64,000 nt of DNA, from positions 190,330 through 254,329 of the forward strand of contig JASGKB010000014.1 in the NCBI GenBank assembly GCA_049840675.1, in the 5' to 3' direction. The position numbers were made by a program, and so were the translations under genes. Of the stretch, positions 41,814 through 61,573 are shown piece by piece. The DNA is from Pirellulales bacterium (lineage in GTDB: Bacteria; Planctomycetota; Planctomycetia; Pirellulales; PNKZ01). Position 1 is the stretch's first letter. Every line of letters starts with the position of its first letter. The notes beneath the pieces were generated by a model. That model was not told where the DNA came from and did not search any database. It worked only from the letters and a program-made list of their open reading frames with translations.

Positions 41814-44606
41814 CTAATTCCCCGCCGTTGTCGGCGTGCCGGTTTTTAGTTCCTTCAAGAGTCGTTCGTTGCTCGCCACGGCCGCCGGGTCGCGTAGCTT
41901 CGGGTCGGCCTTCATGATCTCAAGTTGCTTTTCCACGCATTGGATGAGCATCGCCTTTGAAGGAGTCGGCTGAGCAAGGAACAACTCGGTTGCTTGGCGG
42001 AAATCGCTCAATGCGTCGGCCTGTTTTTTGAGCTGCAGCTTGGCGTTTGCCCGCACGAAGAACGTCGTCGGTTCGCTTGAATCGGCGGCGATCGCTTTGT
42101 CGCAATCGGATGCCGCCTCGGCATATTGTTTCAGCTCATAGCGGGCCGTCGCACGATTGCGCAAGGCCGAGGCGTTGTCGTTGTCCAAACCGAGGATGTC
42201 GTCGTACTCGGTGATCGCCGTTCGCCAATCTCCTTGTCGACCGTAGCAGAAAGCCCGGCCGAGTCGTGCGTCGATGTGTGCGACCTCGAGTTCTTTCACC
42301 ACGGTGTTGAAGTCGACCAAGGCCGAACCAAGATCAGCGTCGGCGATATAGGCGTCGCCTCGCTTTACGTAAGCATCCGCCAATAGCGTTCGTAGTTTCT
42401 TTTGATCGACGTAAGTCACCGTCTGCAACTTGCGTCCTTCACTGACGACGGCGGTGATCGCGCGCGCCGTAGTCGCCTTCTCCAGCTTGGCCCGCAAGAG
42501 TGCGAGCAGGTCGACGGTGCGGAAGGTCACCGTGAACGTAGATTTCGTCGAGAGCGGCGGCGTGCCTGCATCGGTCGCTTCGACTGTCACCTTTACCGGC
42601 GCCATTTTCAAGTCGTCGGGTACCGTGGGTGCGAAGGTGAACAGCCCGGTGGCGGCGTCGAGCTTCGCTCCTTCCGGCACCGGAGCGACAAGGGCGAATT
42701 TCAGCTTTGCGCCGGCCGCGGCGTCCGGATCATTGGATTCGATCGGAAACGAAAGCGCCGGACCGGCCGTGTTCTGAAGCGGCAGGTTGATCGTGCGATC
42801 GGCGATCTGTTCGATCACCGGCGGCTTGTTGTCCGCCGTGACGTTGACGACGATCTCCGTTCGGGCCGACAGCGAAGGCTTGCCGTCGTCGCTCACGGCG
42901 ACCGTGAACTTCGTCGTCTTGCCGGTGACGTCGCTGGTTGGAGTCCACGTGAATTCGCCGGTGGAGCCGTCGAGCTTGGCTCCTTCCGGGAGGGCTGAGT
43001 CTGAAACCACGCCGTACGAAAGCTTCTGAACCGGCACGTCCGAATCGGCTCCTTCGAGCTTGAACGCTACCGGCGCACCGACCTTCGCATTGATTGCGGC
43101 CACCGACTTGATCGTCGGCGCGGCGTTCACTTCTTTCACGGCCAGTTCGAATGTTTTCTCTTGTGCCAGCGGCGACTCGGCGTCGTCTTCCAGACGGACG
43201 CGAAAATTCACGTCGCCCGGGCCTTGTTGCTCGGTCGGCGTCCAGGTCAGCATGTTCGTCTTGGTATCGAGCGTCAGGCCGGCCGGAGCGTCGAGCAACG
43301 TCAGCTTGAGTTTCTCGGGCTTCGTTTCGGCATCGCGGGCTTCGAGCTTCAGCGACCAAGCGGCCAGTTCCGGAATCTCACCTTTCAGGCCGTCAGGCTT
43401 CAGTTCCGGCGGTTGGTTCTTCGGCTTTTCGGGCGGAGGAGTCGGCGTCGGTTTGGGCTCGGGCTTCGGGGCTTCGGCCACTTCGTCCGGCGCCTGTTCG
43501 CCGCCGGGCATTGCAAACACGCCGACGACGCCTAACGCAAACAGCAATCCGACCAGCAAGGCCTTGCGATTCTTTTTCTTCTTCTCGTCCGCAGCCGATT
43601 TCGCCGCGCCAGACTTGGCGACGTTGCCCGGTTTTCCCGGGGCCGTATTGGCAGGAGACGCGCTGCCGGCCGGTCGGGCGGAGCCGGGAGCCGTTGCCGT
43701 GTCGTATTTCGACGACGGATTGAAGATTCGATCGACGTCGCTCACCAGGGCCGCTCCGGAAGCCGATCCGGTGATACCGAGTTCCGGTGCGATGATCGGA
43801 ACGAGCGGTGTTTGCGTCAGATCCTTCAAAGCGTCGGCGGCCGAAGCGTAGCGGTCCGCGACCGGCTTCTTTAGCAGTCGGTCGAGTACCATCACCAGTT
43901 CCAGCGGAGCATTTGGAGCCAGCTCGGCGACGCTCGGCAGCTTCGTTGCGTCGCCCGCGTGCCAACGCATCCACGCCGTGCGAGAAGCCTGCTCGTTGCC
44001 GTCGACGCCGGGAAACAACGCGTCAAACTTCGGACCGACCAAAAGCTCAAGAACGCTGAAGCCGAGCGAGTAGAGATCGGCCGTCGAGCCGTATTCGCCG
44101 AAGCTCGGGCTTACCGCCTCCGGGGCCACATACTTCATCTGACGCTTTTGATACGGCAGGCCGCCGGCCACCGCGCTGCCGACCGAAAAGCTGAGCTTCA
44201 CGCGGCCGGCGCGATTGAGCAATAGCGTCTGCGGGCGGATGTCGCCGTGCGTACGCTTTTGTTCTTGTAAACGCTCAAGACCTTGTAGCCCTTGACGAAG
44301 TACGCTGCGGGCCGCTTCCGCGTCGAGCGGTTTCGTCAGCAATTGGCCGCAGTGCCCGGCCATGAGTTCCATGACGATCCAGCCCTGCCCGCGATCTACG
44401 GCGTAGACCGGCACGAGCCGATCGTCGGTCAATTGCGCAACGGCCGTGATTTCGTCCCAGAAACGGGGCGAGCGTTCCGCTTCTTTGCGGAGCGCCGCGT
44501 CGAGCTGAAGAATGGCGACTTCGCGCTTCAGCGAAAACTGCACGCCGCGGAACACGGTTCCGTAGGCGTTGCTGCCAAGCGATTCCCAAGTTTCAAAGTC
44601 GGCCAT
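41814..44606 (-). CDS. Transmembrane Ser/Thr kinase-like protein (probable pseudokinase) with three Ig/cadherin-like repeats and C-terminal TPRs
   Basis: Start MADFETW. Kinase fold (YGTVF, IVMELM, HGDIRP, YVAPE, ADLYSLG, R). TM LLVGLLFALGVVGVF. Three N.PP...LD..TG..TWTPT-type repeats. TPR helices. Confidence 0.85.
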   Translation of the reverse strand: MADFETWESLGSNAYGTVFRGVQFSLKREVAILQLDAALRKEAERSPRFWDEITAVAQLTDDRLVPVYAVDRGQGWIVMELMAGHCGQLLTKPLDAEAARSVLRQGLQGLERLQEQKRTHGDIRPQTLLLNRAGRVKLSFSVGSAVAGGLPYQKRQMKYVAPEAVSPSFGEYGSTADLYSLGFSVLELLVGPKFDALFPGVDGNEQASRTAWMRWHAGDATKLPSVAELAPNAPLELVMVLDRLLKKPVADRYASAADALKDLTQTPLVPIIAPELGITGSASGAALVSDVDRIFNPSSKYDTATAPGSARPAGSASPANTAPGKPGNVAKSGAAKSAADEKKKKNRKALLVGLLFALGVVGVFAMPGGEQAPDEVAEAPKPEPKPTPTPPPEKPKNQPPELKPDGLKGEIPELAAWSLKLEARDAETKPEKLKLTLLDAPAGLTLDTKTNMLTWTPTEQQGPGDVNFRVRLEDDAESPLAQEKTFELAVKEVNAAPTIKSVAAINAKVGAPVAFKLEGADSDVPVQKLSYGVVSDSALPEGAKLDGSTGEFTWTPTSDVTGKTTKFTVAVSDDGKPSLSARTEIVVNVTADNKPPVIEQIADRTINLPLQNTAGPALSFPIESNDPDAAAGAKLKFALVAPVPEGAKLDAATGLFTFAPTVPDDLKMAPVKVTVEATDAGTPPLSTKSTFTVTFRTVDLLALLRAKLEKATTARAITAVVSEGRKLQTVTYVDQKKLRTLLADAYVKRGDAYIADADLGSALVDFNTVVKELEVAHIDARLGRAFCYGRQGDWRTAITEYDDILGLDNDNASALRNRATARYELKQYAEAASDCDKAIAADSSEPTTFFVRANAKLQLKKQADALSDFRQATELFLAQPTPSKAMLIQCVEKQLEIMKADPKLRDPAAVASNERLLKELKTGTPTTAGN

Positions 44607-44653
44607 ATTCCCGGTTTCCTTATTGCATCCGGCGTCGCGGGCCGCTTGATTCG

Positions 44654-45451
44654 TCAGAGGCCTGGCGTGATTTGTTCTCGTACGTAAGCTTCGGCCTGCA
44701 CCAGCGCCTCCGGCAACGGTTTGCCTTCCGTCAGCAGCAGGTTCTTTTCCCAAACGATGCGGTCGCGAAGCCGGCGGTATTCCGCGGCCGCCCGATCGGT
44801 GTCGCCTCGGAAAGCCTCGGCATGGGCCCGGCTGAGCATGACCCAAAGGTCTGGAGCGCAGGCCGGCTCTTTTTGCAACATCGAAACCATTTCGGGGAAT
44901 TCGGGCAGAACCGATTCGGCCGAGGTTTTGGCGTCGGAGGGGAGGAAACTGTCGGAAAATAACACAAAAACGGCCGCCGCGGCGAACAGCACGCCAACGA
45001 GGATTGCCGGAGTGTTCGACTTTTCTTTTGTCGGCTGGTCGCCCGGTTTGTCCGCATCGCTGGCGGCGGCAGATACCGCGACCGAAGCGTCTACGTCCAG
45101 CGGCACCGGCGGCACGTAGGCTTCCGCCGGGCGACGCGAAGGCGCGCCGTCGCCGGAAGTTTCCAGCTTGAGCACCAAGCCGCCGGGAAACTTGAGCGAC
45201 TTGCCCGAACGCCACGGGCCGCTCTCGCTGGGGGCGATCGTGAGTGAATCGAGCGTCAACGGCGACGAGCCGCGATTGTAGACGACGTATTTGCCGTCGC
45301 CGTAGCGGATCGTCAGCGCGTGCGGCTCGACGGCGGGATCGGCCACGATCAGTTCGCAACTCGCATCGCTGCCGAGTCGCAATACCTCGTACTCGATCCA
45401 AAGTTCTTCGCCGGCCGAAGGGCCGTCGGTGATTAAAAGTTTGGCGGGCAT
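44654..45451 (-). CDS. FHA-like domain membrane protein
   Basis: LLITDGPSAG..LRLGSDASCEL beta-rich N-terminus, linker, single TM (ILVGVLFAAAAVFVLF), helical C-terminus. Confidence 0.7.
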   Translation of the reverse strand: MPAKLLITDGPSAGEELWIEYEVLRLGSDASCELIVADPAVEPHALTIRYGDGKYVVYNRGSSPLTLDSLTIAPSESGPWRSGKSLKFPGGLVLKLETSGDGAPSRRPAEAYVPPVPLDVDASVAVSAAASDADKPGDQPTKEKSNTPAILVGVLFAAAAVFVLFSDSFLPSDAKTSAESVLPEFPEMVSMLQKEPACAPDLWVMLSRAHAEAFRGDTDRAAAEYRRLRDRIVWEKNLLLTEGKPLPEALVQAEAYVREQITPGL

Positions 45452-45514
45452 GACGGTAAGTCGCGATAAATGATTCTGTCGGGAACGTTGCGGAGGGCGA
45501 TCCCGACAGAGTTA

Positions 45515-46420
45515 TCAAATTCCTAAAGCTTGGAGGATAAACGGAGTGCCGATGATCACGAGGCACGCGATCATGATCACCATTCCCGGGAGCACGATAT
45601 TCACTTGCGCGGTACCGGCCGCTTTCTCGGCCCATTGCGAACGTTTGAGTCGCATCTGCTCGGCCTGCAGGCGGAAGGTCTGAGCCATCGGCGTGCCGAA
45701 CTCGTTGCCTTTGTTGACCATGAAAACCAATTCGGCCACATCGTCATCCGGCACGCGCTGTTGAAACCGCGCCAAACATTCGTTGAGCGGTCGGCCGAGT
45801 TGGATTTCGCTCACGATCATGCCGAGCTCGTCGCCGAGCGGATGGCCTCGCAAGTCGCGCACCAGCGTCGTGAGCCCGTCCATAAGGCCGCCGCCGGCTT
45901 CGAGCATGAGCGCCATCAGGTCGACGGCGAACGGCAACCGCCGCTTGACCTGCTGCGTTCGCGACTCGGCCTTTTGCACGATGTTCTTGATCGCATTACG
46001 TTGCAGAAAGAGCGGCAGGCCAAGCCCGAGCGCAATACCGAGTACGGGCATGCCGAGCATGATTCCCAACACGACGCCGATGACGCCCGCGATCGCCCCT
46101 TCGGCCAGCTTGACGGCGTAGTACTCTTCCGGCTTCCAGGGCAACGGCTCGGCTGCCGACGTCAATTGTCCGGCGAATTTGGTCTGTTTGTCGATCGGCA
46201 GTTTGCGATACCAAGCGGCAAGCTCGTCGACGACCGGCTCGAACCAGCGATAAGCCGAGTTGCCGCGACGGAGCGCCACCCGTCGCGACGCTTCGAATTC
46301 CCACGCTTGCGCGGACATCGCTCGCGGTCGAGTCACGAGGCCGTACACCCAAGCGCCAAGCGCGGCCGACCCGAATCCGGCGGCGGTGCTGGCGGCGAGC
46401 AGTAATTGAGTGCGTTCCAT
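45515..46420 (-). CDS. tadC: Tad inner-membrane platform protein TadC (T2SS F family)
   Basis: LPFAVDLMALMLEAG, E..LGRP, G.PMAQTFR.QAEQMR.KRSQ.AEKAAG, C-terminal TM. Confidence 0.88.
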   Translation of the reverse strand: MERTQLLLAASTAAGFGSAALGAWVYGLVTRPRAMSAQAWEFEASRRVALRRGNSAYRWFEPVVDELAAWYRKLPIDKQTKFAGQLTSAAEPLPWKPEEYYAVKLAEGAIAGVIGVVLGIMLGMPVLGIALGLGLPLFLQRNAIKNIVQKAESRTQQVKRRLPFAVDLMALMLEAGGGLMDGLTTLVRDLRGHPLGDELGMIVSEIQLGRPLNECLARFQQRVPDDDVAELVFMVNKGNEFGTPMAQTFRLQAEQMRLKRSQWAEKAAGTAQVNIVLPGMVIMIACLVIIGTPFILQALGI

Positions 46421-46441
46421 AACGACGATCGGCAGTGCGAA

Positions 46442-47296
46442 CTAGACTTCGAGTTTCAAGATACGGTTGGCCCAACGAACGGCGGCGTAAACGATGACGA
46501 TCACGAACACGAGAACGACCTGCCCGAGGATCGACGTGAAAAGCAGCGCCGTTCCTTCAGGGTTTAAAAAATAAAACAACCCGAGAAACACGGCCGGGAA
46601 CGCCGCCAGCATGACGACGACTTTACGGCCGCTTTCGGTATCCGCTTCGAGCTTTCGTTCCAGGCGTTGGTTTTCTTGCAGCGAGCGGCTGATGCGTTCC
46701 AAGGCTTCGGTAATTCGCCCGCCCCGTTCTAGGCTGACCAAGAGGGCGGATGTGAAGAGCGTGAATCCGTCGAGCTTCAGTCGATCTCGGGCCTGAATCA
46801 GCGCTTCGGCCAACGGTCGGCCGCCGCGATAATCGCGGACAATTCGGCGAAGTTCCGTCGCCAAAGGCTCCGGCGTTTCGTTCGAGACGTTTTCAATGCC
46901 TTGTGCGAGCGACAATCCGGCCCGCGTGGCGTTGGCCAGGGCGGTGACGGTCCCGACAAGTTGATCGCGGAGCAGCGTCGCACGACGGCTGATCATGTAT
47001 TGCAAATAGAGCCGTGGAGCGACGTACACCAAATACACGGCCGCGACTGCAACCGGCCACATTCCCAGACCGATCGAGAACAACACGAACACGGCGGCCA
47101 TCGAAATGCCCCACCAACGCAGCAGATCCGGCATCCGATCGCTCGTGAGGCTGAGAGAATCGAGCATCGGTCGCACGTCGGAGACGTAGCGTTCGCCGAC
47201 TTTGTCCCACAGCGGCATCAGAATCCGCACGAGATAAAACGCCGCCGCTCCGATGGCGATGCTAGAGGCGAATAACATGAGGGCGGAGCTGCTCAT
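46442..47296 (-). CDS. tadB: Tad inner-membrane platform protein TadB (T2SS F family)
   Basis: QL...LANATRAGLSLAQG, PEPLATEL, GGRITEALERI, two C-terminal TMs. Confidence 0.88.
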   Translation of the reverse strand: MSSSALMLFASSIAIGAAAFYLVRILMPLWDKVGERYVSDVRPMLDSLSLTSDRMPDLLRWWGISMAAVFVLFSIGLGMWPVAVAAVYLVYVAPRLYLQYMISRRATLLRDQLVGTVTALANATRAGLSLAQGIENVSNETPEPLATELRRIVRDYRGGRPLAEALIQARDRLKLDGFTLFTSALLVSLERGGRITEALERISRSLQENQRLERKLEADTESGRKVVVMLAAFPAVFLGLFYFLNPEGTALLFTSILGQVVLVFVIVIVYAAVRWANRILKLEV

Positions 47297-47308
47297 GGCG
47301 TGCGCCCT

Positions 47309-49196
47309 TTACAAGTAGAAGGTGTTGAGGTCGAGCAGGCCGGCGCCGATCGAGCTTCTCCATGAATGTCGGCAGGCAGCCGGTCGGCCGCAGCATCGGC
47401 TTGCCGTCGACCGTTTCGAGCATGAAGAGATCTTTGAGCCGCATCTGCTTGGTGACTTCGTCGTAATCGACGACTTCGGCGATCTGCGTGACGCGGCGGG
47501 AGCCGTCGCGGAGGCGAGCTTGTTGAACGACAAGATCGACGGCCGACGCAATTTGCCGATGAATCGATTCCACGGGCAAGTCGGCCGCCATCTGCACAAG
47601 CACTTCCAGCCGGAGGATGACGTCTTCCGCGCTGTTGGCGTGAATCGTCGTCATGGAGCCGTCGTGGCCCGTGTTCATCGCTTGCAGCATGTCGAGCGAT
47701 TCGCCTGAGCGGCATTCTCCGACCACGACGCGGTCCGGCCGCATCCGCAGGGCGTTCTTCACAAGGTCGCGAATCGTGTACTCGCCGCGGCCTTCGACGT
47801 TGGCCGTTTTGGTTTCGAGCCTCACAACGTGTTCTTTGGCCAGTTGCAGTTCGGCTGTGTCTTCGATCGTGACGATCCGTTCCTTGTCGGGAATAAAATC
47901 GCTCAGGCAGTTGAGCAGCGTGGTTTTGCCGCTCCCCGTACCGCCGGCGATGATAATGTTCGCCCGTGCAAGGACCGCCGCCTTGAGAAACGCGGCGACC
48001 GTGGGCGTCAGGCTCCCTTTGGCGATGAGGTCGTCGACCTTCAATCGCCGCGATGGGAACTTGCGGATGGTGATGCAAGGCCCGCTCACGGCCAGCGGCG
48101 GAATTACGGCGTTTACGCGGCTGCCGTCCCACAGTCGGGCATCGACAAGCGGCTGCGATTTATCGATCCGTCGGCCGACGCGAGAAACAATTCGTTCGAT
48201 GATCGCCAACGTCGTTTCATCGCTGGTGAAGCGGCGGCCGGAGTTTTCCAATACGCCCGATTTCTCGATATAGATGTGCTCGCGGTCGACGACCATGATT
48301 TCCGAAACCGTGGGCACTCGGAGCAAGTCTTCCAGCGGACCGTAGCCGAAGACGATGTCTTTGATTTGCTTCTTCAGGTAACGGAATGCCAGGTATTCGC
48401 GGAAGTCACGGTGTACGGCATCAGACGTCGCGGCGAAGGCAGGCCAAAACTTGCGTTCGACCGCTTCCAATCGCTCCGTCAGTGGTTGCGACGGCGCGAG
48501 TTCGATTTGCCGCGCCAAACGAACGTTGGTTTCTTGTAGCTCACGCTCGCGATCCGCGACGATCGAGAGCGTGCGCGTCCAGGCCGCGGCGGCGGTCAGC
48601 GCACCATCGAACCCGCCGCCCGCCGAGTTCAGAAGATCGTTCAGCATCTCGCCGCGCAGCGCATGGCCGGCCGTGTGCAGAACGAGCGATTCGTTTTCCG
48701 GCTTGAGCAGACCTCGCAGCTTGGCGATTTCCTCGATATTGTGCTCGAGGACCAGCAAATATTCGTCGGTCTGTCCGCGGTTGTCGTGGAAGTGGGTTTT
48801 GAGATCCATCCGCTGGAGCAGTTCTAGATGGACTTCGGAAACCAGTTCCGAAAGCTTGCGATCCCATTCGCGACGCTTGGCGTCTTCCGTTTGCCGGGCG
48901 GTACGAGGGAACTCCAGCAGCAGCGTGAACGGGCCAAGTGAAAGTTCCGCATCGCCGGTGAGCAGTTCCTTTTCGCCGACAAACAGCTCGCGCTCCCCAA
49001 GCTGACAAATGCCGCCGCCGCTGACGACGAGTTCCCAGCCGTCGGCCTTTTTGAGGAATTCCAAGGCCCGTTCGGCGATGAACGGGCTATTGAGCACTAT
49101 ATCGTTGTCGGCGCTCCGGCCGACGCGGAGATAGTTGCCGCGGACGTCGTAAACGCGGGGGCTGTTGTCCAGCAGGTGGTTGTAGCGAATCCGCAT
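47309..49196 (-). CDS. cpaF: CpaF/TadA pilus ATPase with an N-terminal FHA-like domain; frameshift near 47355
   Basis: RVGRSADNDIVL. GYGPLEDLL, VDARL.DGSR, GGTGSGKTT, IEDTAEL, LRMRPDR.VVGECR, MNTGHDG.MTTIHAN. C-terminus GLLDLNTFYL in another frame. Confidence 0.92.
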
Positions 49197-49198
49197 GG

Positions 49199-50062
49199 TT
49201 ACGGCCCCGTCGCCGTCGGCGAAGCTTCCGGCTTGGCAGGTTCGGACTTCTGCGCCTCTTTCTCTGCGGACTTCTCATTGATTGCGTCGCGGAGACGCTT
49301 CAATCGCCCTTCGTCTTGGTAGAGCACCATGCCGACGAAGTTCTTCCCTTCGGCGGCTCGGGCATTCTTGGCGGCGAGCAGCCGGCGAGCGGCTTCCGGG
49401 ATCGCACGAACGCCGCCCACGGTTTCGTCCGTCGGCTTCTTCATTCCGGGGTCGAGCTTGACGGCCAGCGTCACGAAGTTGGTGTTGCCACGATCGGTCG
49501 CTTCGGCGTCGGCTTCGGTCGGCGCTTCCAGCGTTCGCGAGCCGACGCTCAGGATGCGAAAGGGGCCGATTTCCTCAAACCGCATATTGAGGTCGACCGG
49601 GACGTTGGCCGGATTGCTCGGATCGACGGGCTTCGGCGCTTCGTTGGCCGGCACGATAAGGCTGACGAGGTTGCCGACTTTCAAAAGCGACGGCTCGTAA
49701 TCGACCCCTTCGAGCGACACGTGCAGCGGCATTTCATCAGGCCCGGCCAAGAAATCAGCCGAGAGGTATCGCACGTCCTGCCAAAACACAAAGTCGCCTT
49801 TGCGCATCTCGCGGCGAATCGGCAAATTCAAAATGGCGGCACGCTCTTCCCAGGGAACTAGCGTCTGCTTCATGCGCCCGAAATCGGCGCCCACGATCTT
49901 AAACGGTTCGATCTGGCTCTCGTCGAGCGGTTTATCGATCGTCACGTCTTCGTTGACGACGACGAACTCGCGACCAAGTTGGGGCTGCACGGCCAGCCAG
50001 TTGAGCACGAAGGCCAGAGCGCCGAGGCCGAGCGGAATCAGAAGCTTGCCGAGGTTTTTCAT
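49199..50062 (-). CDS. CpaB/RcpC-like protein (SAF domain)
   Basis: N-terminal TM, FVVVNEDV, IRREMRKGD, LKVGNLVSLI, FRILSVG, VTLAV. Sits directly upstream of cpaF-tadB-tadC. Confidence 0.7.
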   Translation of the reverse strand: MKNLGKLLIPLGLGALAFVLNWLAVQPQLGREFVVVNEDVTIDKPLDESQIEPFKIVGADFGRMKQTLVPWEERAAILNLPIRREMRKGDFVFWQDVRYLSADFLAGPDEMPLHVSLEGVDYEPSLLKVGNLVSLIVPANEAPKPVDPSNPANVPVDLNMRFEEIGPFRILSVGSRTLEAPTEADAEATDRGNTNFVTLAVKLDPGMKKPTDETVGGVRAIPEAARRLLAAKNARAAEGKNFVGMVLYQDEGRLKRLRDAINEKSAEKEAQKSEPAKPEASPTATGP

Positions 50063-50121
50063 AAGGTGCTGAGCGAGTTCTCGGCGAGTTTGTTACGGAT
50101 GTAGGGCCGGTCGACGGCCGA

Positions 50122-51018
50122 TTATTTAGGCCTTACCTCGGCGGCCGACGGATCGAGAGCCAAGATTGTCGTATCGCCTCGACTTCCCGGCTCCCAAAGA
50201 ATCAGCCGCAATGGTCGACCGCTGACGACGGCGATCCCTTCGCGCGTGTCGGCCACGCCGTCGTTGAGCGTAACCGGCACGCCGGCGGCTCGCCAGAGTT
50301 CAAGAAGCTGGTCAATTTTTGACGCCGCTTTGGAAAACTCGCCGACCACTGCGCCGCCCGGTCCGCGGCGAACGGCGAGCCGTTCCAAACCGGCGACTGA
50401 GGGGAGCAAGCCGGACGACGGCGTATCCGAAGTTCGTTCCTTCGCGCGAACGGCGGCGATGGTCGCCCATTGATCGGGGCCGAGGCGGAGGACGCCGTGA
50501 GCCATGACGATTCGGTAAGACTGGCCGTCGAATCGCTCCTGAGCCGTGGCAAGCATACGGTCATTAGCAACGGATCGCGTCGCCCAGCCGTTGACCTTGG
50601 TTTGCGCGGCGTGAAGGCTCTCGAAAAGCGATCCGAGCGAACGTTCGATGGAATCAATCTCCGCCGGAAGTTCTACGTTGGGATCGACGGCCGGCGCTTT
50701 GATGAGCGCCTTCTCTTTGTCCGTCGCCGTACCGACGGTGAGTGACCAGCCGGCGCCGAGGAATTCCCAACTACCGCCAAGCTGCGACAGCGCCACCGAG
50801 TTCAGTGGCGCAGGTTCGGTCGTGGTCGGGTCGGCGGAATCCGTGGGCTTTACGACGGCGACCGGCTCGCGATCGTGCAGAAGGTTCGTAAACCGGGTGA
50901 TCGTCCAATAGCCGACGGCCAGCACCCCGGCGGCCAGCGCCAGCCGTACAGCCATCTGCACGGCCCGTCGTTGCGCAGAAGGCTCAGGCAGCGACGGTAT
51001 TGGTTCGGCGGAGGTCAT
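50122..51018 (-). CDS. Hypothetical single-TM protein in the Tad locus
   Basis: Own ATG (MTSAEPIP) after the inferred stop of the upstream gene. TM LALAAGVLAVGYW. Confidence 0.65.
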   Translation of the reverse strand: MTSAEPIPSLPEPSAQRRAVQMAVRLALAAGVLAVGYWTITRFTNLLHDREPVAVVKPTDSADPTTTEPAPLNSVALSQLGGSWEFLGAGWSLTVGTATDKEKALIKAPAVDPNVELPAEIDSIERSLGSLFESLHAAQTKVNGWATRSVANDRMLATAQERFDGQSYRIVMAHGVLRLGPDQWATIAAVRAKERTSDTPSSGLLPSVAGLERLAVRRGPGGAVVGEFSKAASKIDQLLELWRAAGVPVTLNDGVADTREGIAVVSGRPLRLILWEPGSRGDTTILALDPSAAEVRPK

Positions 51019-51074
51019 ATTGGAATATCTTAGCGGAACTTCGTCGAACGATCGTGCGCCAATGCGGACGAACA

Positions 51075-51918
51075 CTAGAACTTCTCCGACTTCTTGATGA
51101 GGTCGAGCTCTTCTTGGCGTTGTTCGAGTTCCGCTTCTTTTTGCTTTCGCACCGCTTCCTTCGCCTTGATCTGCTGGTCGATCTCTTTCTTCTTGGCCTC
51201 GAGCTTCCTCCGGCTTGTCCTTCAGGTCCTTTTCGGCCTGCTCTTTATCTTTGTTGAGCTGGGTGATTTCCTGATTGATCTGAGCGATTTCCCCTTGGAG
51301 GCGTTGCACTTCTCCCTCAATCCGCTTCTTCTCGGCCTCGCGCTTGGCTCGGGCTTCCTCCTGTTTCTTACGAGCTTCATCCAAGCCCGGCGGGTCTTCT
51401 TGCGTCTTACGCGAGGCGTCGCCGAGGCGATCCATCGTGTCGCCGACGGCCGAGCCGAGCCCGCGAAGTTGATCGATCACAGAGGTCATTTTGCCGAGAC
51501 TGCCGGCCAGAACGAGTTGTCCGTAGAGTTCCAGGCGGTTCTTGTCTTTAAGCGGTAGCTCCGTGTAGCTCCACGTGTTGCGGAGTACGGAGAGCTGTGC
51601 CGAGCCGGAAATCTGGCCGCTCGGGAAAACGGTCACGGCCGTATCCGTGCGCGATGCACTGCCGGTGACAATGTCGCGCGTGTACCGGCTGCTCGTCGCC
51701 ACGTCTTCCAAGAGAAATCGATCCATGCCGCCCGCCGACTTGTGCGCCAGCGAACGATTCATGGCGTTGGTGCGGGCGTCAATCTGCGTTTGCGACGTCA
51801 GCACCATGCCGTCGGCCGTGAGCATGATCAGAGCGACCATGAGGATCAAAATGGGAAACGACAGGGCCAGTTCTAAGGTGGCCAAGCCGCGACGGTTGTA
51901 GTTCTTCATGGCTTGCAT
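51075..51918 (-). CDS. TadE-like pseudopilin with a long C-terminal coiled coil; frameshift near 51205
   Basis: RRG|LATLELALSFPIL prepilin motif (E+5). The K/E/Q-rich heptad tail continues in the shifted frame (KKKEIDQQIKAKE...SEKF) to TAG at 51075-51077. Confidence 0.75.
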
Positions 51919-51921
51919 AGA

Positions 51922-53851
51922 TCAATGAGTCCGGAAGGCACTTAGATCCAGCGGCAACTTGAGCAAAGTGTTACGCATCTTCGACGGCATGCGAATGAAG
52001 CTGATTCGAGCATCACCGTACCGCGTGACCGGCGTGAGCTTCGCTTGCCAGTTGAGCTTCACTTCCGGGTGTTCGTCGGCCCGGTTGAACAGCAGAAACG
52101 GCACGCTCGGCGGCATGATCCGCATGCCGGCTTCGTCACCCTTGAGGAACTCAAAGGCCCGTGCGGAGGCGATCGGAGCTTGCCAGTTGAGCGTATCCCA
52201 ACCGACTTCCGGTTGGTACGTTCCACCGTCGCGCCAGCCGCCGATGTTCTGTTTGTTGGCGTTGTAGACGATGGCCTGCGAATAGCAGACGATTCCGTCT
52301 TTGGGGGCCGAGCCGAAGATGGCGCCGGCGAGCGGTTCGCGAGCGTCACGCTGCACGAAGGCCATTTGCGTGAACAACGTTTCGGCCTCTTCGCCGTCTG
52401 TCGTCCAGCTTTCGCGGCCTTTGCCGCTCTTGGGCGTGTCCTGCATGACGTACATTGCCAGTTTGCGTTGTCCCTTTTGGCCGCCGTATTGGCCGCTACG
52501 AAACTGATACGTCTTGGCGGCCGTGTAACGATTGGTCCAGCGCGAATACCAAGTGCCAGCTCGCGAAACCATCAGAACGCCGGCGAACCATTCGCGGATC
52601 GGCTTGCGCCAGCCTTGAACGTAGGGATAAGTTGCCCGCGCCCACTGCGATTGCTCGACCTTCTTCCAGTCGTCGCGCGAAAGCCGTGGGAGCGAATCGC
52701 GGCTCCAGTTGTGCGCCGCGATCGTAGCCGTCGTCGCCCGGATTCGGTCGCAGCGACGCACCGGGATTTTGCACGCCGCCGTTCGTGCCGAGCACGTCGT
52801 TGGCGTCGCCTAGGAGGCTGGTCGCGGAGCCGAGGAGGTCGAGAGCCTTCGAAAGGAAGTCGGCGTCTGATGAGGCGTTGCCTCCCTGAGGCTCGCGTCC
52901 GAAGAGAATGCTCTGACTCTCGGCCGGGGGCGCCGGTTCGCGTTCGATCGGCAGCGGTAAGCGGGCCGGAAAGAGATGTAGCGTCACATTGTTGCGTTTG
53001 GCGTTTTCTTGGGCCACGCGCTCGCCGATGACGGGAAACTGTTTGAAGCAAACCTCGCCGTAATTTTCCAAAAATGGCAACATCCGACTTTCCACGATGT
53101 TCCGCTTGGCGACGGTCGAGAAGATTTTGGCGATCTTTTCGACCCCGTCGATGATGATCACTTCCTGGAGCATCTTGCCGACGAGCACCGTGAGCGGGAT
53201 GTTGATGCCCCAATAAATTGCCTCCCCGATGCCGAACGGAATGAACCGGCAGGCGATCGCCACGAGCCGACCGATGAGCACTTCGGTCATGTAGTATTTC
53301 ATCGTGCAGCGGGCGTCGAAGATCGTTGCGAAGGCTTGGTGTTTGCCTTGGCTGTCGTCGTCGCTGCCGCCGTCTTTCTTCATCTGCTTCACGGCCTGCT
53401 CGTCGAGTGCGTGAAGTTCGTAACTGCTACTCAGCGGCAAGAGGGTCGTGAGCGACTTGTTGAGAATGTTCGAGACGTTCGATTGTTTGCGTTCGTCCTT
53501 CGGGGCCAGATCGTCGAGTTCCGTGCCGCCGAGCGCTTCGTGAATGATGAGAATCGCCGACAGTTCGCCGAGCATGTGATTCGTGAGGGTCACCGCGTTC
53601 AGGCCGCGGGCCGTCATCGAGGTGCTCGTAAGAATTGCGGCGTCGGCCGCGTTTTGCACTTCGACCTTTTGCCGAACGGCTGCGCCGACGTTGAAAACCA
53701 TCGTCACGAGCAGGGCGAAGAAGAGCACCGCCACGCAGGTGACGAAGCTCAAGAAGCCGCGCTCGCAGCCGGCCAGCGATTGTGTCGCTTCGGCAGAGCG
53801 GCCGGCGTCATCGGCCAGGCAACGACCAAGGCTATTTAAGTGCCGGAACAT
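51922..53851 (-). CDS. Large TadG-like (Tad domain) pseudopilin; frameshift near 52705
   Basis: ERG|FLSFVT hydrophobic helix, then NVG.AVRQKVEVQNAADAA and ARGLN (Tad domain). Continues in ORF 51922..52761. Confidence 0.78.
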
Positions 53852-54599
53852 AACTGATTCCTAAAGGGCGCGACGCCGGATTCGGGACGTCGGTACGCGG
53901 GGCTTGGTTTTCGAGTTTGACGACCGTCGTGATCGTGGTCGTATAGAAGCCATAGGGAGTGAGCTTGCCGAAAATGCGACCGATCGCCGGCATATGAAAC
54001 GGCGCCTGATATTCAAGCGTCACCGTCACATCTTTGCGGTAGTTCGGACCGGCGTCGGTCGTGACCTTCGTCGCCCAGCCGGCGTACTGATATTTCCAAC
54101 CGAGGTATTCGAGATCGGCGGGCTTGTCGGCAAAGGCCTTGTGTGCGGCGAGATACGTCAGCCCCGAAGCGGCCGGCATGCTGAGCGGGCGATGTCGCGT
54201 GCTGCCGGACGCGAACGGCGTCATGGCTTGGCGAGCCGCGAGGTCCATCTTGTTTTGAGCGTCGCCACGCGACACGCCGGAGGGAAACCAGACGACGGAC
54301 GAGCGGGCCGCGGCGTACGCGGAGTAAACCGTGCCGATCTTGGCGACCAAAATCAAAGTCATGTCGATCGTCAGGCAGATGATCAGGGCGAGCATCGGAA
54401 TTGTGAGCATGTAGCTCAGCGAGTAAGCAGTGCCGGCGTCGCAGCCGTGGAGCGAACGGAGAGCCCGACGTTGTTGCGAATGGCGGCGGATTGCACGGAC
54501 GCAACCGCGTGTCAGAAGCACGATTGCCACGAGTCCGGCCGTCCAGACGGCCCAGACCCATTCGACCGAGCGAAAGAGTTCCGGAATGATTTCGAACAT
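53832..54599 (-). CDS. TadE-like pseudopilin with an extra N-terminal TM
   Basis: DAG|TAYSLSYMLTIP hydrophobic segment, YSAYAAARS (TadE signature), DVTVTLEY. Confidence 0.72.
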   Translation of the reverse strand: MFEIIPELFRSVEWVWAVWTAGLVAIVLLTRGCVRAIRRHSQQRRALRSLHGCDAGTAYSLSYMLTIPMLALIICLTIDMTLILVAKIGTVYSAYAAARSSVVWFPSGVSRGDAQNKMDLAARQAMTPFASGSTRHRPLSMPAASGLTYLAAHKAFADKPADLEYLGWKYQYAGWATKVTTDAGPNYRKDVTVTLEYQAPFHMPAIGRIFGKLTPYGFYTTTITTVVKLENQAPRTDVPNPASRPLGISYVPALK

Positions 54600-54644
54600 G
54601 ACGAGTTCCGCTGCGGCGAAGTGCCGCGTTCACCGAAACGACGA

Positions 54645-54821
54645 TTAGAGGAAGGGCCACACGACGAGCGACTGCACGATCTGAAACAACCGGCCGCAGG
54701 CTTCTTTGCCGATGAAGTAAAGCCCGGCGGCGAACGGAAGCATGATGCCCGTGGCCAGAGCGACTTCCATCGTCGAAAGGCCACGACGGCGGGAGCGACG
54801 AGAGTTGCGGCGAGCGTTCAT
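54645..54821 (-). CDS. Small Flp/pilin-like protein (58 aa), absent from the ORF track
   Basis: Hand translation MNARRNSRRSRRRG|LSTMEVALATGIMLPFAAGLYFIGKEACGRLFQIVQSLVVWPFL-stop. Basic leader, G-1, E+5, hydrophobic helix. Confidence 0.8.
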   Translation of the reverse strand: MNARRNSRRSRRRGLSTMEVALATGIMLPFAAGLYFIGKEACGRLFQIVQSLVVWPFL

Positions 54822-54852
54822 TGCGGCGGCCCAGTGAATTTGTAGTGTGTCG

Positions 54853-55596
54853 TTAAGCCTGGGCCACGGCGTAGAGCGCGCCGATCAGGAAGAACGGGGC
54901 CAGCGGAACCGGCAAGCTCAGCAACTTCTTCTCTTCAACGTCGGGCGGCAGGACCCAAAGCGGCACGAAGAAGTGGCCGATCTTGCGACCGAGACTTGAG
55001 AGCACGGTTTTCGGGCCGAACTTCACGATGCCGTAAGCCAAGGCGAAAGCACCGGCCGCGATATGAGCGGCCACGATGGCCGTGAGGCCGACGGTCGGGC
55101 CGAGTCCGGCACCGAGCACGGCTGCAATTTTGACGTCGCCGCCGCCGCCGCCGGCGTTCATGAAGATGAAGAACATCAGCACGAAGCAGGCTCCGAAGCC
55201 GGCCCATTGTTCGGCGATCGGCGGAGCGCCCAGGAGCAACGTCCACTTGGCCGCGCCCACCGACATGGCCGTACCGGCCGCATCGCTGATCGTGCCGAAA
55301 GCCTTGAGGCTCACTTGCAGCATCCCGAGCGAGAGCAACCAGCCCACGGCCGGGTACGTGATGTAGTTGGGAATTCGGTGACGGGCCAGATCCGTCGCGG
55401 TCGCCGCCAAGAGCGTGGCGAGGATGATGAAGCCGGTCCAGGTTTGCCACACGGTTGCCGCGGGGGCAGATTGCTGAGCGTAGAAAGCCCAGCACAATCC
55501 GGCGGCGGGCAGCAAGCTAAAAATCCGCCAGCTCGACAAACGGGAGTCATACAGCGGAGCGTCGAGCGAGGCGGAGTAAGGAAGAACGGTGGCCAT
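54853..55596 (-). CDS. Prepilin peptidase, A24 family (TadV/CpaA)
   Basis: ATDLARHRIPN (first Asp), GGGDVK (second Asp), VPLAPF, multiple TMs. Confidence 0.9.
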   Translation of the reverse strand: MATVLPYSASLDAPLYDSRLSSWRIFSLLPAAGLCWAFYAQQSAPAATVWQTWTGFIILATLLAATATDLARHRIPNYITYPAVGWLLSLGMLQVSLKAFGTISDAAGTAMSVGAAKWTLLLGAPPIAEQWAGFGACFVLMFFIFMNAGGGGGDVKIAAVLGAGLGPTVGLTAIVAAHIAAGAFALAYGIVKFGPKTVLSSLGRKIGHFFVPLWVLPPDVEEKKLLSLPVPLAPFFLIGALYAVAQA

Positions 55597-55705
55597 GGCA
55601 GTCGGCTTTCGATTCTTAGAAGTTTCGGGCGAATCCCTCGACGTGCGTCGCACCACTCCGTTTGTGTGCGGGCGTCTGATCGACGCACGTCGCCGCATTT
55701 GCAGG

Positions 55706-55882
55706 CTAGGCCTTGATGCCAAAGCCTTTGAGTTCCTTCTTCACCCAGGTCATCACCGGCTCACGAACCTTGTAGAGCAGAGCGAGTACGATGGCCGCGG
55801 CGCCGAAGATGATGACCGCTTGCATGGTTTCCATACCGGCTTCATCACGATCCAGACGACGGAGAGCATTGCGAATCGACAT
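55706..55882 (-). CDS. flp: Flp-type major pilin, copy 2 (58 aa), absent from the ORF track
   Basis: MSIRNALRRLDRDEAG|METMQAVIIFGAAAIVLALLYKVREPVMTWVKKELKGFGIKA. GAGGT ribosome-binding site. Confidence 0.85.
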   Translation of the reverse strand: MSIRNALRRLDRDEAGMETMQAVIIFGAAAIVLALLYKVREPVMTWVKKELKGFGIKA

Positions 55883-55964
55883 GTTACACCTCAGTTTGGG
55901 AATGATTGTTATTGGCGGGAAGTTTCAGGCGGGAAGTTTTGGCGGGTTGTGAAGTTGTTGAGAG

Positions 55965-56141
55965 CTAGGCCTTGATGCCGAAACCCTTGAGTTCCTTCTT
56001 GACCCACGTCATGACCGGCTCACGAACCTTGTAAAGCAGAGCGAGCACGATGGCGGCGGCACCGAAGATGATGACCGCTTGCATGGTTTCCATACCGGCT
56101 TCATCACGATCCAGACGACGGAGAGCACTGCGAATCGACAT
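55965..56141 (-). CDS. flp: Flp-type major pilin, copy 1 (58 aa)
   Basis: MSIRSALRRLDRDEAG|METMQAV... GAGGT ribosome-binding site. 57 of 58 aa identical to copy 2. Confidence 0.85.
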   Translation of the reverse strand: MSIRSALRRLDRDEAGMETMQAVIIFGAAAIVLALLYKVREPVMTWVKKELKGFGIKA

Positions 56142-56384
56142 GACACACCTCAGTTTGGGAAAGTTGTTTTGGCCGTCTCTCACCGAACTTGGTTTGACTG
56201 ACGGCTCTGCCATGCCTAAGCGTGAGGTGCGGCAAAGTGTTACGCGAAAACTTCCGGCCGGCACGAGAGTTGAAAAGAGTCGGAAAAACACCCGAGAAAT
56301 GCCGCGAAAATTGACCAATCTCCCCAAGCCTGGGAAACGGTCCGTTGACGCTGCGAGGGACCCTCTTTTGCGATCTGCCGCGTT

Positions 56385-57503
56385 CTACGCCGCTTCCGGC
56401 CGGAAAATATCGGCCGTAAGGTTCACCAGTTCACCAAAGCCCATCGCGTGAGCCTCACCGGCGAACGTCGGCACTTCTCCCGTCGGCCGCATTTCCCCCA
56501 GAATTCGCCCTCCAGCGTCGCGTCCGGAGGCGTAAAACCGGAAAATATCGCGAAAAGCGTATTGGTTCTTGTCGTCGAGGCCCAGCATTTCGCTGATGGC
56601 CTGCACGCGCCGGCTGCCGTCGCCCAGCCGGGCGATGTTCACTACCAGGTTCAAGGCCGACGCCACCTGCGTGCGGGCGACGTGGACCGGTAGGCCGACA
56701 TCGCTCATCAAGCAGAGCGTTTCGAGCCGTACGGCGGCGTCGCGCGGCGTATTCGCGTGAACGGTGCTCAATGAGCCCGCATGCCCCGAAAGCATCGATT
56801 GAATCAGGTCTAAAGCCTCGCCCCGGCGCACTTCGCCCACGACGATCCGGTCCGGCCGCATCCGTAGCGAGTCGACGAACAAGTCGCGAATCGTCACTTG
56901 CCCGCGTCCGTCAGGCCGCGGCGGCTGGGCTTCGAGGTAAACCGTATGCGGTTGGTTCAGCTGCAATTCGGAGCTGTCTTCAATGACGATGATGCGTTCG
57001 TGCTCGGGAATCGACGTCGAAAGCGCGTTCAGCATCGAGGTTTTGCCGGTGCCCGTGCCGCCGGCAATCACCATGTTTTTGTGCAAAATCACGCACAATC
57101 GCAGGAATTCGGCCGCCTGCGGGCTCATGCTCCCCTTCTGCACGAGCGAGTCGAGATTGAACGTCGACTTCTGAAACTTCCGAATCGAGATGCAGCAGCC
57201 CACTCGCGAACTGGGTGGGATGATCACATGCACGCGGCTGCCGTCCGGCAAGCGAGCGTCCATGCTGTGGTGATCCGCGTCGATCTGCCGATTGACGTAT
57301 TCCCCGATATTACGGGCCGCCGCCATTAAAGCCGCGGCGTCGGGGAATTTCAGATCCGCCCGATTGAGGCGCCCTGCCCGCTCGAAATAGATGTCGTCCG
57401 GCCCGTTGATGAGGATCTCGGAGACGGTCGGGTCGTCGAGCAGGGGCAGAACCGGCCTCAGAAAATGCCGCGTGGTCTCGCGGAAGATGTCGATCATGTG
57501 CAC
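56385..57503 (-). CDS. cpaF: Second, short CpaF/TadA ATPase (no FHA domain)
   Basis: LLDDPTVSEILING, MDARLPDGSR, GGTGTGKTS, IEDSSEL, LRMRPDRIVVGEVR, SGHAG.LSTVHAN. Confidence 0.92.
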   Translation of the reverse strand: MHMIDIFRETTRHFLRPVLPLLDDPTVSEILINGPDDIYFERAGRLNRADLKFPDAAALMAAARNIGEYVNRQIDADHHSMDARLPDGSRVHVIIPPSSRVGCCISIRKFQKSTFNLDSLVQKGSMSPQAAEFLRLCVILHKNMVIAGGTGTGKTSMLNALSTSIPEHERIIVIEDSSELQLNQPHTVYLEAQPPRPDGRGQVTIRDLFVDSLRMRPDRIVVGEVRRGEALDLIQSMLSGHAGSLSTVHANTPRDAAVRLETLCLMSDVGLPVHVARTQVASALNLVVNIARLGDGSRRVQAISEMLGLDDKNQYAFRDIFRFYASGRDAGGRILGEMRPTGEVPTFAGEAHAMGFGELVNLTADIFRPEAA

Positions 57504-59543: not shown

Positions 59544-59684
59544 TCGGGCTTCTCTTCGCACGCGTTCCTGCGCCTCGCTAGGCGCTCGTGAGGCGTGATC
59601 TCTTCCGAATTCGCGGCATTCGCACGCGCACACATATTCGTCCGTACCTGTCGTTGTCTCTGTCTTGCCTTCAGGAGCCGATTT

Positions 59685-60515
59685 ATGTCCGGCTATTCGC
59701 GGGTTGCCGTTCGTCGTTCGTCCGTCGTGGTCGTCTTCTGTCTCGCGTTCGTCCTGTTCGCCGGCTTCTTCAGTCATCTGGCCGCACAGGAGTCTTCTCC
59801 CTCGTCTGAGCCTGCCGCCGCGGTAGCGCATGCTGATTCCACAGAGAGTCCGCATCAGAAGAGCAAGTTCATGTGGTTCATTGAAAGCTCCGGTTGGATC
59901 GGTGCGGTGCTATTGCTGCTTTCGATGTACTTTATCGCTACGGTCAGTCGGCTGTTCTTCGAACTTCGGCTCGACAAGGAGATGCCTCCGGAAACCGTCA
60001 TTGACGTCAATGCGCTCGTCGATCAGCGCAATTTCCAAGGGGTCTACGACCGTCTCAAGGCCGACGACACGATGTTCGGCCGCGTCGCCGCCGCCGGGTT
60101 GGCGGAAATGAATTCCGGCTTGGAAGAGGCCCGCGGCGTCATGGAACGCGTCGGCGATTCGGAGACCGTCGATATGGAAAAGCGAATTAGCATGCTCGCC
60201 GTGCTCGGTTCGCTCGGGCCGATGATCGGTTTGCTCGGCACCCTCAAAGGCATGATCGCGAGCTTCGCCGTCATCGCACTCTCAGATACCCAACTCAAGG
60301 CCAGCGAGGTGGCCGGCGGCATTTCCGAAGCTTTGCTGCTGACGTTCGAGGGCGTGGCGCTGTCGGTGCCGGCCATCTACTTCTTCGCCGTGTTTCGCAA
60401 TCGCGTGGCTTCCATCAGCACGGCCGTCGTGCTGGAGGCCGACGACTTTCTGCGGCGCATCGTCAAGGTGACTCGTTCTGCCAAAGCCGCCGGGGCCGCG
60501 CCGGTGCGAGCTTAA
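59685..60515 (+). CDS. MotA/TolQ/ExbB proton channel family protein
   Basis: AGGAG ribosome-binding site. LGPMIGLLGTLKGMI.SF, AGGISEALLLTFEG..L.VPA. Confidence 0.92.
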   Translation: MSGYSRVAVRRSSVVVVFCLAFVLFAGFFSHLAAQESSPSSEPAAAVAHADSTESPHQKSKFMWFIESSGWIGAVLLLLSMYFIATVSRLFFELRLDKEMPPETVIDVNALVDQRNFQGVYDRLKADDTMFGRVAAAGLAEMNSGLEEARGVMERVGDSETVDMEKRISMLAVLGSLGPMIGLLGTLKGMIASFAVIALSDTQLKASEVAGGISEALLLTFEGVALSVPAIYFFAVFRNRVASISTAVVLEADDFLRRIVKVTRSAKAAGAAPVRA

Positions 60516-60569
60516 CGAGTCGTCGTCCTCATGGTCATCACCTTTCACATCTAACACACAGGACCGCCC

Positions 60570-61040
60570 ATGTCTGCCGCCAAAGACGGCGCGGAACCCG
60601 ACCTCACGCCGATTCTCGACATGGTCTTTCAGTTGATCACGTTCTTCATGCTGGTGATCAATTTCAAAAGCGCCTCGCTGGACATGTCGCTGAAGCTGCC
60701 GGTCGTCGGTTCCGCACGCCCGGTCGACAACCATGCTCAGGAAGACTTGTTGGTACTCAACATCAACTCATCCGGAAAGCTCAACGTTTACGGCGAAACC
60801 AAAGACGTCGATTCCTACATTTCGAGCGAAGCCCGCGCCGCGGCATTCGCCGCGAAGCGTGAGAATCGCGATTTCAAGTCGGGCGACGAGTTGCCGACGA
60901 TCGTCATCATTCGCGCCGACAAGACGACGCCGTTTCACTTGTTGAACCACGTCATCAAGACCTGCCAAGACAAGGGCTTTCGTCGGTTCGCGCTGAAGGC
61001 GATGAATCGTCACGAAGACAACGCAGGAGGAAAATCCTAA
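60570..61040 (+). CDS. ExbD/TolR family protein
   Basis: DLTPILDMVFQLITFFM (conserved Asp), IIRADK. Confidence 0.92.
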   Translation: MSAAKDGAEPDLTPILDMVFQLITFFMLVINFKSASLDMSLKLPVVGSARPVDNHAQEDLLVLNINSSGKLNVYGETKDVDSYISSEARAAAFAAKRENRDFKSGDELPTIVIIRADKTTPFHLLNHVIKTCQDKGFRRFALKAMNRHEDNAGGKS

Positions 61041-61555
61041 TGCGCCGCCATAAGAGACGCAGGTCGCAAGGCGACGTCGAACTCAACCTGGCCGCCATGC
61101 TCGATATGGCGTTTCAGTTGTTGACGTTCTTCATCTTCACCTTCAAGCCTTCGCCGATCGAAGGTCAGCTCAGCCTCCGTTTGCCTCCGCCCGAGCCAAT
61201 CGCGCAGGTTTCGCAAACTCAAGCTCCGGGCGACGACCCCGATGCGGCGCCCGCCGCCGGGCAATCGACGCTCGTGGTCAGCGCATTTGCCGCGCCCGAC
61301 GGACGTTTGGCCTTGATGCGGCTCGGCGAAGGTCCGGTCGGCGGCCTCGCGCAACTCGATTCCAAGTTGCACGAGGCTTTGCACGAGACCGGATCGCCGT
61401 TCGATCGCATCGTCGTGCAAGTCGCGCCGCAATTGAAATACGACGAACTCATGCAGATCGTCGACGTCTGCTCGCGACAGACATCGGCCGACGGGAAGCC
61501 TCTCAATCGGCTGAGTTTTCTCGAAATGTCCGATTCGCAAGTTCGTGCTCGATAA
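61040..61555 (+). CDS. Second ExbD/TolR family protein
   Basis: LNLAAMLDMAFQLLTFFIFTF, LKY..L.QIVDVC. TAATG overlap with the previous gene. Confidence 0.9.
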   Translation: MRRHKRRRSQGDVELNLAAMLDMAFQLLTFFIFTFKPSPIEGQLSLRLPPPEPIAQVSQTQAPGDDPDAAPAAGQSTLVVSAFAAPDGRLALMRLGEGPVGGLAQLDSKLHEALHETGSPFDRIVVQVAPQLKYDELMQIVDVCSRQTSADGKPLNRLSFLEMSDSQVRAR

Positions 61556-61573
61556 CTCCGCCGCCAAGCCCCT

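Follow-up and report, generated by a model that had tools for sequence, protein, structure and literature searches.

A conserved Tad subfamily with two ATPases, FHA modules and a membrane kinase, common to the Planctomycetota and Myxococcota

A stretch of 64 kb from a Pirellulales bacterium, hereafter called the window, carries a Tad/Flp-type cluster of 15 genes, all of which are located on the minus strand at 41814..57503. In the order of transcription, these encode a short CpaF, two Flp pilins, an A24 prepilin peptidase, a 58-residue pilin, a TadE-like, a TadG-like and a coiled-coil TadE-like protein, a hypothetical protein, a CpaB-like protein, a CpaF fused to an FHA domain, TadB, TadC, an FHA protein with a transmembrane segment (FHA-TM) and a kinase-like membrane protein with three Ig domains and TPR repeats. 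Pfam matches were obtained for two T2SSE ATPases, two T2SSF platform proteins, the A24 peptidase, the TadG N-terminus and the kinase/He_PIG/TPR protein. We find that the cluster belongs to a conserved Tad subfamily common to the Planctomycetota and the Myxococcota, the members of which have two CpaF proteins (one short, one fused to FHA), an FHA protein in the membrane, a membrane Ser/Thr kinase and no TadZ. The gene order is the same in a second genome of the genus (G548), and it is thus not a chance arrangement. Named relatives come from the Pirellulaceae and Planctomycetaceae, from which we deduce that the host belongs to the Planctomycetia. The original prediction, made from the sequence of the window, had listed the same genes in the same order, had noted that secretin, TadZ/CpaE and TadD genes are missing from the locus, and had proposed a distinct Tad variant; our domain and profile searches agree on the gene content, and the variant is conserved, with two ATPases that are both separate from the ordinary TadA of the genome and with kinase and FHA genes that travel with the locus.

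The FHA-bearing N-terminus of the long ATPase was matched in 36 of 401 genomes from the phylum, about 10 of these matches being weak and partial, and profile searches identified the FHA-bearing long ATPase in 55 of 301 genomes from the class. With a calibrated profile threshold, the short ATPase was recovered from 53 of these 55 genomes and from none of the 246 genomes without the long ATPase, counts that include kin and hence are not independent. The co-occurrence holds also on complete chromosomes where the two genes are far apart (for example G330 and G670), and the linkage of the two motors is well supported. Among 65 planctomycete stretches with the system, each of up to 20 kb and many cut by contig ends, we identified cpaB in 57, the kinase in 41, an FHA gene in 38 and a secretin in 3. 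No match to CpaE/TadZ was obtained in the 65 stretches with a search that readily finds it in ordinary Tad loci, and the one TadZ_N match in the window genome belongs to another Tad locus. The Myxococcota have the same operon, consisting of genes for a secretin, the FHA-ATPase, TadB, TadC, FHA-TM and often a TPR lipoprotein, with a short cpaF nearby; in one locus from this phylum (L068), no secretin was seen and the long ATPase has no FHA domain. In some Planctomycetia, a zinc-ribbon transmembrane protein takes the place of FHA-TM after tadC (L118:13959-14915). We found no description of a two-ATPase or kinase-linked Tad system from planctomycetes in a literature search that covered subscription journals poorly, and the variant is a real and conserved form of the Tad pilus that is apparently unpublished.

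Tad pili are the model for type IV pili with a single motor, one ATPase being used for both extension and retraction. We give an even chance to the reading that the locus encodes a Tad/Flp machine with two ATPases, in which the FHA-fused motor docks on the pseudokinase independently of phosphorylation and the short ATPase serves as a second motor, of the retraction type. In such a machine, the A24 peptidase would mature the Flp pilins and the TadE/TadG tip pilins, and the FHA-fused CpaF, with its predicted platform contacts retained, would extend the pilus on TadB/TadC. Instead of TadZ, the pseudokinase and FHA-TM would position this motor, possibly under the guidance of the periplasmic Ig/TPR part; the short CpaF would engage the platform differently and act like PilT in pulling the pilus back. 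An unlinked secretin would serve as the exit, either the PilQ of a pilMNOQ cluster or one of the RcpA type. This wiring probably works as a genuine kinase/phospho-Thr switch in the majority of relatives; the window lineage would have frozen it into a scaffold.

More tentatively, a PilB/PilT-like motor pair may have evolved independently in this widespread Tad lineage, with TadZ replaced by a receptor-kinase/FHA module, RcpA and PilQ secretins swapped for each other, and one branch acquiring a pseudokinase scaffold similar to EssB/EssC; the product would be a retractile, contact-responsive and possibly antagonistic pilus of planctomycetes. A natural two-motor Tad system with a bundle-less second ATPase would make the use of one ATPase for extension versus retraction directly testable, and a second motor for retraction, if true, would be a new design in a pilus family thought to be single-motor. 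Furthermore, sister lineages with active and dead kinases provide a natural pair for the change from phospho-switch to scaffold, in parallel to type VII secretion, and the subfamily links the planctomycetes to the predatory Kil machinery.

In a tree of 70 ATPase rows, the long ATPases of the planctomycetes (support 100/99) and those of the Myxococcota (99/88) are sister clades, with a joint support of 97/90. The short ATPases form a separate clade (100/100), within which the planctomycete branching largely mirrors that of the long ATPases, and the other CpaF proteins of the window genome group with ordinary Tad ATPases, apart from both proteins of the locus. The short ATPase aligns to CpaF of C. 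crescentus from residue 149 onward only and therefore lacks most of the N-terminal three-helix bundle, which is considered the minimum CpaF architecture by Yen et al. 2025 (PMC12019362). Its clade has retained the Walker A lysine (55/55), the Walker B glutamate (54/55) and the equivalent of R347 (55/55); D208 is retained in 28 of 55 sequences, and R206 and E331 have mostly been lost. The latter two are among the platform contacts listed in the same study, as predicted with AlphaFold3 for another species, and they are retained in 62 and 66, respectively, of 67 long ATPases. The short ATPases also have a signature in helix alpha5, with N in 52 of 56 sequences at a position where the others have R (164/177). 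Both ATPases of the locus have intact catalytic motifs. We infer that the short protein still works as an ATPase and docks in a different way. The pair resembles PilB and PilT of type IVa pili (T4aP), where a duplication likewise gave one longer and one shorter ATPase that differ in their platform interfaces; Denise et al. 2019 (PMC6668835) describe this duplication and report that PilT is missing from Tad systems. The pair described here stems from an independent duplication inside CpaF and the retraction role is putative. A stand-alone FHA-fused ATPase (L256:9526-11247) was found nested inside the short-ATPase clade.

The short ATPase could also be a partner or a brake, which forms mixed hexamers with the FHA-fused CpaF or acts in another step, such as the loading of tips or effectors. 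A partner of this kind would fit with the near-strict co-occurrence of the two proteins, with the erosion of the platform contacts and with the loss of the three-helix bundle, the deletion of which gave no protein in C. crescentus (PMC12019362). Against it stand the conserved alpha5 signature of the short protein, the frequent transcription of its gene separately from that of the long ATPase, and the precedent of PilB/PilT as what duplications of this sort are known to yield (PMC6668835). We consider the partner or brake a possible alternative, albeit a doubtful one.

A second alternative is a claim on function that is compatible with the dock and the retraction motor, namely that the locus encodes a Kil-like contact weapon, the pilus of which attacks neighbours with its large TadG/TadE tips. 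The Kil system (Seef 2021, PMC8460266) has the Tad core, an FHA-fused CpaF (KilF), tadB-tadC followed by a YscD/PrgH-like FHA gene and several minor pilins, with no TadZ listed, and its Flp pilus has tips of TadE/G-type minor pilins (Herrou 2025, PMC12075869). The window locus shares the FHA-fused ATPase, the tadB-tadC-FHA order and, through its sister clade, a connection to the Myxococcota. Kil as listed there has a single ATPase, a linked RcpA/BON secretin, the FHA/TPR protein KilD and no kinase domain, whereas the window locus has two ATPases, a membrane (pseudo)kinase, no linked secretin and no match to KilD. In the ATPase tree, KilF of M. xanthus was represented by a proxy (L284), a locus with the kilC-kilF-kilD domain order and the only one recovered in a search for genomes with the full Kil layout; two other genomes (G804 and G805) hold stand-alone FHA-ATPases. 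The proxy is placed outside the long clade in the best tree, although the approximately unbiased test does not reject its grouping with the planctomycete ATPases (p-AU 0.24). Moreover, no toxin or immunity gene was seen in the window locus, and the system occurs in only 55 of the 301 class genomes, and in small-genome lineages elsewhere in the phylum. Judging from its layout, the locus seems to be a relative of Kil and we do not file it as Kil; a role as a weapon is unlikely on balance.

With the canonical Tad/Cpa system of C. crescentus (PMC6668835, PMC12019362), the locus has in common the Flp pilin, the A24 peptidase, the TadE/G minor pilins, the CpaF/TadA ATPase, TadB, TadC and a divergent CpaB. 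The canonical system relies on one bifunctional ATPase, TadZ, the RcpA secretin and TadD, whereas we find two ATPases, FHA proteins and a kinase. An N-terminal FHA domain is also present in the Class III CpaF proteins (Yen 2025, PMC12019362), in which a disordered linker and then the three-helix bundle come after it. The window ATPase seems to differ from these, as approximately 165 residues that are predicted to be helical come directly after its FHA domain, the phospho-site of which is degenerate. Both FHA domains fall under the Pfam cut-offs in the window proteins and were confirmed via orthologues and, for the ATPase, via an AlphaFold model, which gives an FHA sandwich at residues 1-95 and helices at 104-269, with a predicted local distance difference test (pLDDT) score of 85.7.

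The kinases of these loci represent one family: 33 of the 39 carry a WxxWH motif, compared with 1 among the 44 kinase-like open reading frames (ORFs) of the window genome. The window kinase has lost the VAIK lysine and the DFG motif and does not qualify as an active Hanks-type kinase; it also lacks the Thr/Ser in the activation segment that is present in all 24 intact kinases. The phospho-Thr-binding site of an FHA domain, which we take to consist of Arg, Ser and His in the binding loops, is reduced to one of three residues in the ATPase FHA (Arg27 retained) and to none in FHA-TM by alignment column, where one His sits one place earlier. Among 40 loci for which both traits were scored (L124 being left out of the tree), 25 combine an intact kinase with an ATPase FHA that has at least two of the three residues, 9 are degenerate in both, and 6 combine a degenerate kinase with a better FHA. 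All nine doubly degenerate loci belong to one clade of 13 rows that includes the window (support of 95 in the Shimodaira-Hasegawa-like approximate likelihood ratio test, SH-aLRT), in which 9 of 9 kinases seen are degenerate and all 13 ATPase FHA domains have at most one of the three residues. The term pseudokinase in the original prediction is thus appropriate for the window lineage and for three other losses, and not for the family, in which 25 of 40 loci have intact kinases. The Ig/TPR part had been thought to be a surface-exposed receptor; it is predicted to be periplasmic, with one transmembrane segment at residues 349-367, and it varies between relatives. The C-terminal parts include Ig and TPR, FGE-sulfatase-like, caspase C14, PEGA and carboxypeptidase-regulatory domains (L116, L118, L126, L192, L193, L198, L204, L218). 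One group in the Myxococcota (L167, L168, L171, L181, L185) has a different membrane pseudokinase next to the short cpaF, with no WxxWH and no HRD/DFG, which suggests that a dead kinase has arisen a second time within the Tad family described here.

Phospho-regulation might nevertheless persist via a kinase that acts in trans on the pseudokinase or on a linker, as PknB does on the MviN pseudokinase and FhaA (PMC12599244). The window genome has the 44 kinase-like ORFs to draw from, Arg27 is retained in the ATPase FHA, and one member of the clade (L191) has a second kinase domain. However, Ser and His are lost from both FHA phospho-sites, FHA-TM is also without the Arg, and the activation-segment Thr/Ser is absent, all of which makes regulation in trans quite improbable. 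In a term search of the same review on bacterial pseudokinases, Tad, pili and planctomycetes were not mentioned.

The window genome, which is 88.7% complete, contains eight secretin matches outside the locus, two of which are of the RcpA type, so the search for a distant secretin suggested by the original prediction did yield candidates. All 25 carriers of the system that were searched have secretins, and in three genomes consisting of a single contig (G171, G188, G205) the sole secretin is located inside this Tad locus. For these reasons, gene content indicates that the subfamily crosses the outer membrane and that the window lineage probably borrows an unlinked secretin. The opposite view is that the system in the class Planctomycetia lacks a secretin altogether and does its work in the periplasm, as an endopilus. 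Endopilus-like work was one of the options named in the original prediction, and it is not supported as a family trait. None of the three secretin-bearing planctomycete stretches is from this class, and no dedicated secretin orthologue was found in it, as would be expected for an endopilus; yet in Myxococcota stretches (14 of 14 and 4 of 4) the FHA-ATPase is directly preceded by an RcpA-type secretin, and CpaB has been kept. Together with the secretins of the 25 carriers, this renders the endopilus highly unlikely.

In Phycisphaerae-like loci, the linked secretin is of the PilQ clan and comes with a TPR lipoprotein; in six loci (L128, L131, L183, L225, L289, L290) this pair takes the place of RcpA, and these secretins are nested among those of the T4aP type. 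The nearest relative of the in-locus secretins in the window genome (C21:672 kb) was rejected as a dedicated partner: its counterpart in G548 follows pilM/pilO genes, it is the PilQ of this cluster, and it also occurs in system-negative genomes. An orphan RcpA-type secretin adjoining a TPR-like ORF was rejected as the cognate one because it is unspecific, RcpA-type genes being present in 5 of 5 system-negative genomes. This orphan and four further CpaF loci, one of which is canonical with cpaB, cpaC and cpaE, are located at C14:471-480 kb, C4:77.8 kb, C17:857 kb, C15:20 kb and C21:648 kb in the window genome (G000).

The proposed dock has an analogue in type VIIb secretion (T7SSb), where the single-pass membrane pseudokinase EssB (YukC) binds FHA domains without a phospho-site in the ATPase EssC (YukB), and where other type VII variants keep an active kinase or an intact FHA (PMC11217815, PMC12637312). 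The ATPase and the machine are unrelated to ours and no WXG100 or ubiquitin-like gene was seen in the window locus; the parallel is an analogy only. A complex prediction for the pseudokinase and the N-terminus of the long ATPase gave a score of 0.65 versus 0.45 for the best control, the mark being one that is reached by 116 of 157 solved pairs and by 2 of the 215 that were mismatched. At least 95% of the contacts recur between runs, with a partner pLDDT of 86, and the predicted interface places FHA residues 27 and 36-42 against kinase residues 147-176 and 210-217, so that the FHA loops lie against the C-lobe of the kinase and its WxxWH helix. A pseudokinase scaffold for the motor is plausible as a model, and the recruitment of the motor by the kinase via FHA, as originally suggested, has gained a predicted contact.

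Several observations weigh against the dock and the retraction motor. The complex score is exactly at the mark and was obtained from self-built alignments, and since the predicted complex has a solved look-alike in PknB-GarA (6I2P), it shows likeness more than binding; the pass may reflect this solved structure, and the window kinase also reached 0.45 when paired with an unrelated protein. Furthermore, this kinase retains its catalytic Asp. There were four independent kinase losses, of which one is accompanied by loss of the ATPase FHA site and one or two by loss of the FHA-TM site, an association that is not significant after kinship is considered. Retraction by the short ATPase is deduced, and the platform contacts themselves are AlphaFold3 predictions from another species. 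Finally, no secretin could be assigned to the window locus, as both the PilQ and the RcpA-type candidates occur in system-negative genomes.

Comparison with G548 revealed one-base insertions in tadG, in the coiled-coil tadE gene and at the end of the FHA-cpaF gene (positions in Table 1), all of which are whole in G548. When 85 genes were compared between the two genomes, 41 showed frame changes of this kind, including what are presumably chaperone genes (groEL/dnaJ/clpB-like), and the three in the locus are thus assembly errors. A dead, decaying locus, to which the frameshifts and the degenerate kinase/FHA motifs might point, is exceedingly improbable given that the frameshifts are genome-wide, that the locus is intact in G548 with ATPases 88-91% identical, and that the degenerate kinases of several families still have long, open frames and the WxxWH motif.

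Table 1. Features of the Tad locus in the window.
Position	Strand	Feature	Evidence
56385..57503	-	Short CpaF/TadA ATPase, 372 residues; intact catalytic motifs, without most of the N-terminal three-helix bundle	PF00437 3e-56; own clade 100/100; motif counts
55965..56141	-	Flp-like pilin copy 1, 58 residues	Translation, tandem duplicate, local FLP profile
55706..55882	-	Flp-like pilin copy 2, 58 residues	Tandem duplicate, local FLP profile
54853..55596	-	Prepilin peptidase (A24, TadV/CpaA-like), 247 residues	PF01478 2e-9
54645..54821	-	Minor Flp-like pilin, 58 residues	Prepilin-type N-terminus; G548 orthologue 76% identical
53832..54599	-	TadE-like minor pilin, 255 residues	Orthologues in L116, L118, L186
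51922..53851	-	Large minor pilin, TadG-like; one inserted base near 52708 (assembly error); 647 residues in G548	PF13400 1e-6
51075..51918	-	TadE-like pilin with a coiled coil at the C-terminus; inserted base near 51200 (assembly error); 284 residues in G548	PF07811 in orthologue L116
50122..51018	-	Hypothetical protein, 298 residues	Homologues in 7 further loci of the subclade, directly upstream of cpaB
49199..50062	-	Divergent CpaB/RcpC, 287 residues, N-terminal transmembrane segment	Local CpaB profile 5e-18; orthologues match PF16976, weakly TIGR03177
47309..49196	-	FHA-fused CpaF: FHA 1-95, predicted helices 104-269, ATPase; inserted base near 47350 (assembly error)	AlphaFold model pLDDT 85.7
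46442..47296	-	TadB platform protein	PF00482 2e-20
45515..46420	-	TadC platform protein	PF00482 8e-14
44654..45451	-	FHA-TM protein, 265 residues, transmembrane segment 147-165; degenerate FHA phospho-site	PF16697 2e-6
41814..44606	-	Membrane pseudokinase, 930 residues: kinase fold without VAIK lysine, DFG and P+1 threonine; WxxWH; transmembrane segment 349-367; three He_PIG Ig domains; TPR repeats	

Two candidate gene models were discarded. A kinase of 1273 residues starting at 45635 is an artefact of ORF calling, and a TadE fusion of 598 residues is an indel artefact in which the insertion near 51200 falsely joins the coiled-coil tadE gene to the hypothetical gene. With about half of the compared genes affected by indel frameshifts, other findings of split genes in this assembly are suspect. 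The hypothetical protein had no match in Pfam, NCBIfam or Atlas, and a promoter scan was uninformative, with 1 hit versus 3.2 expected. Upstream of the Tad locus, on the opposite strand, an exbB-exbD-exbD cluster and a hypothetical gene are located at 59595-62563 (+), with no link shown. The two flp genes result from a recent tandem duplication of 259 nucleotides, the copies being 93% identical over 198 nucleotides, and G548 has a single copy.

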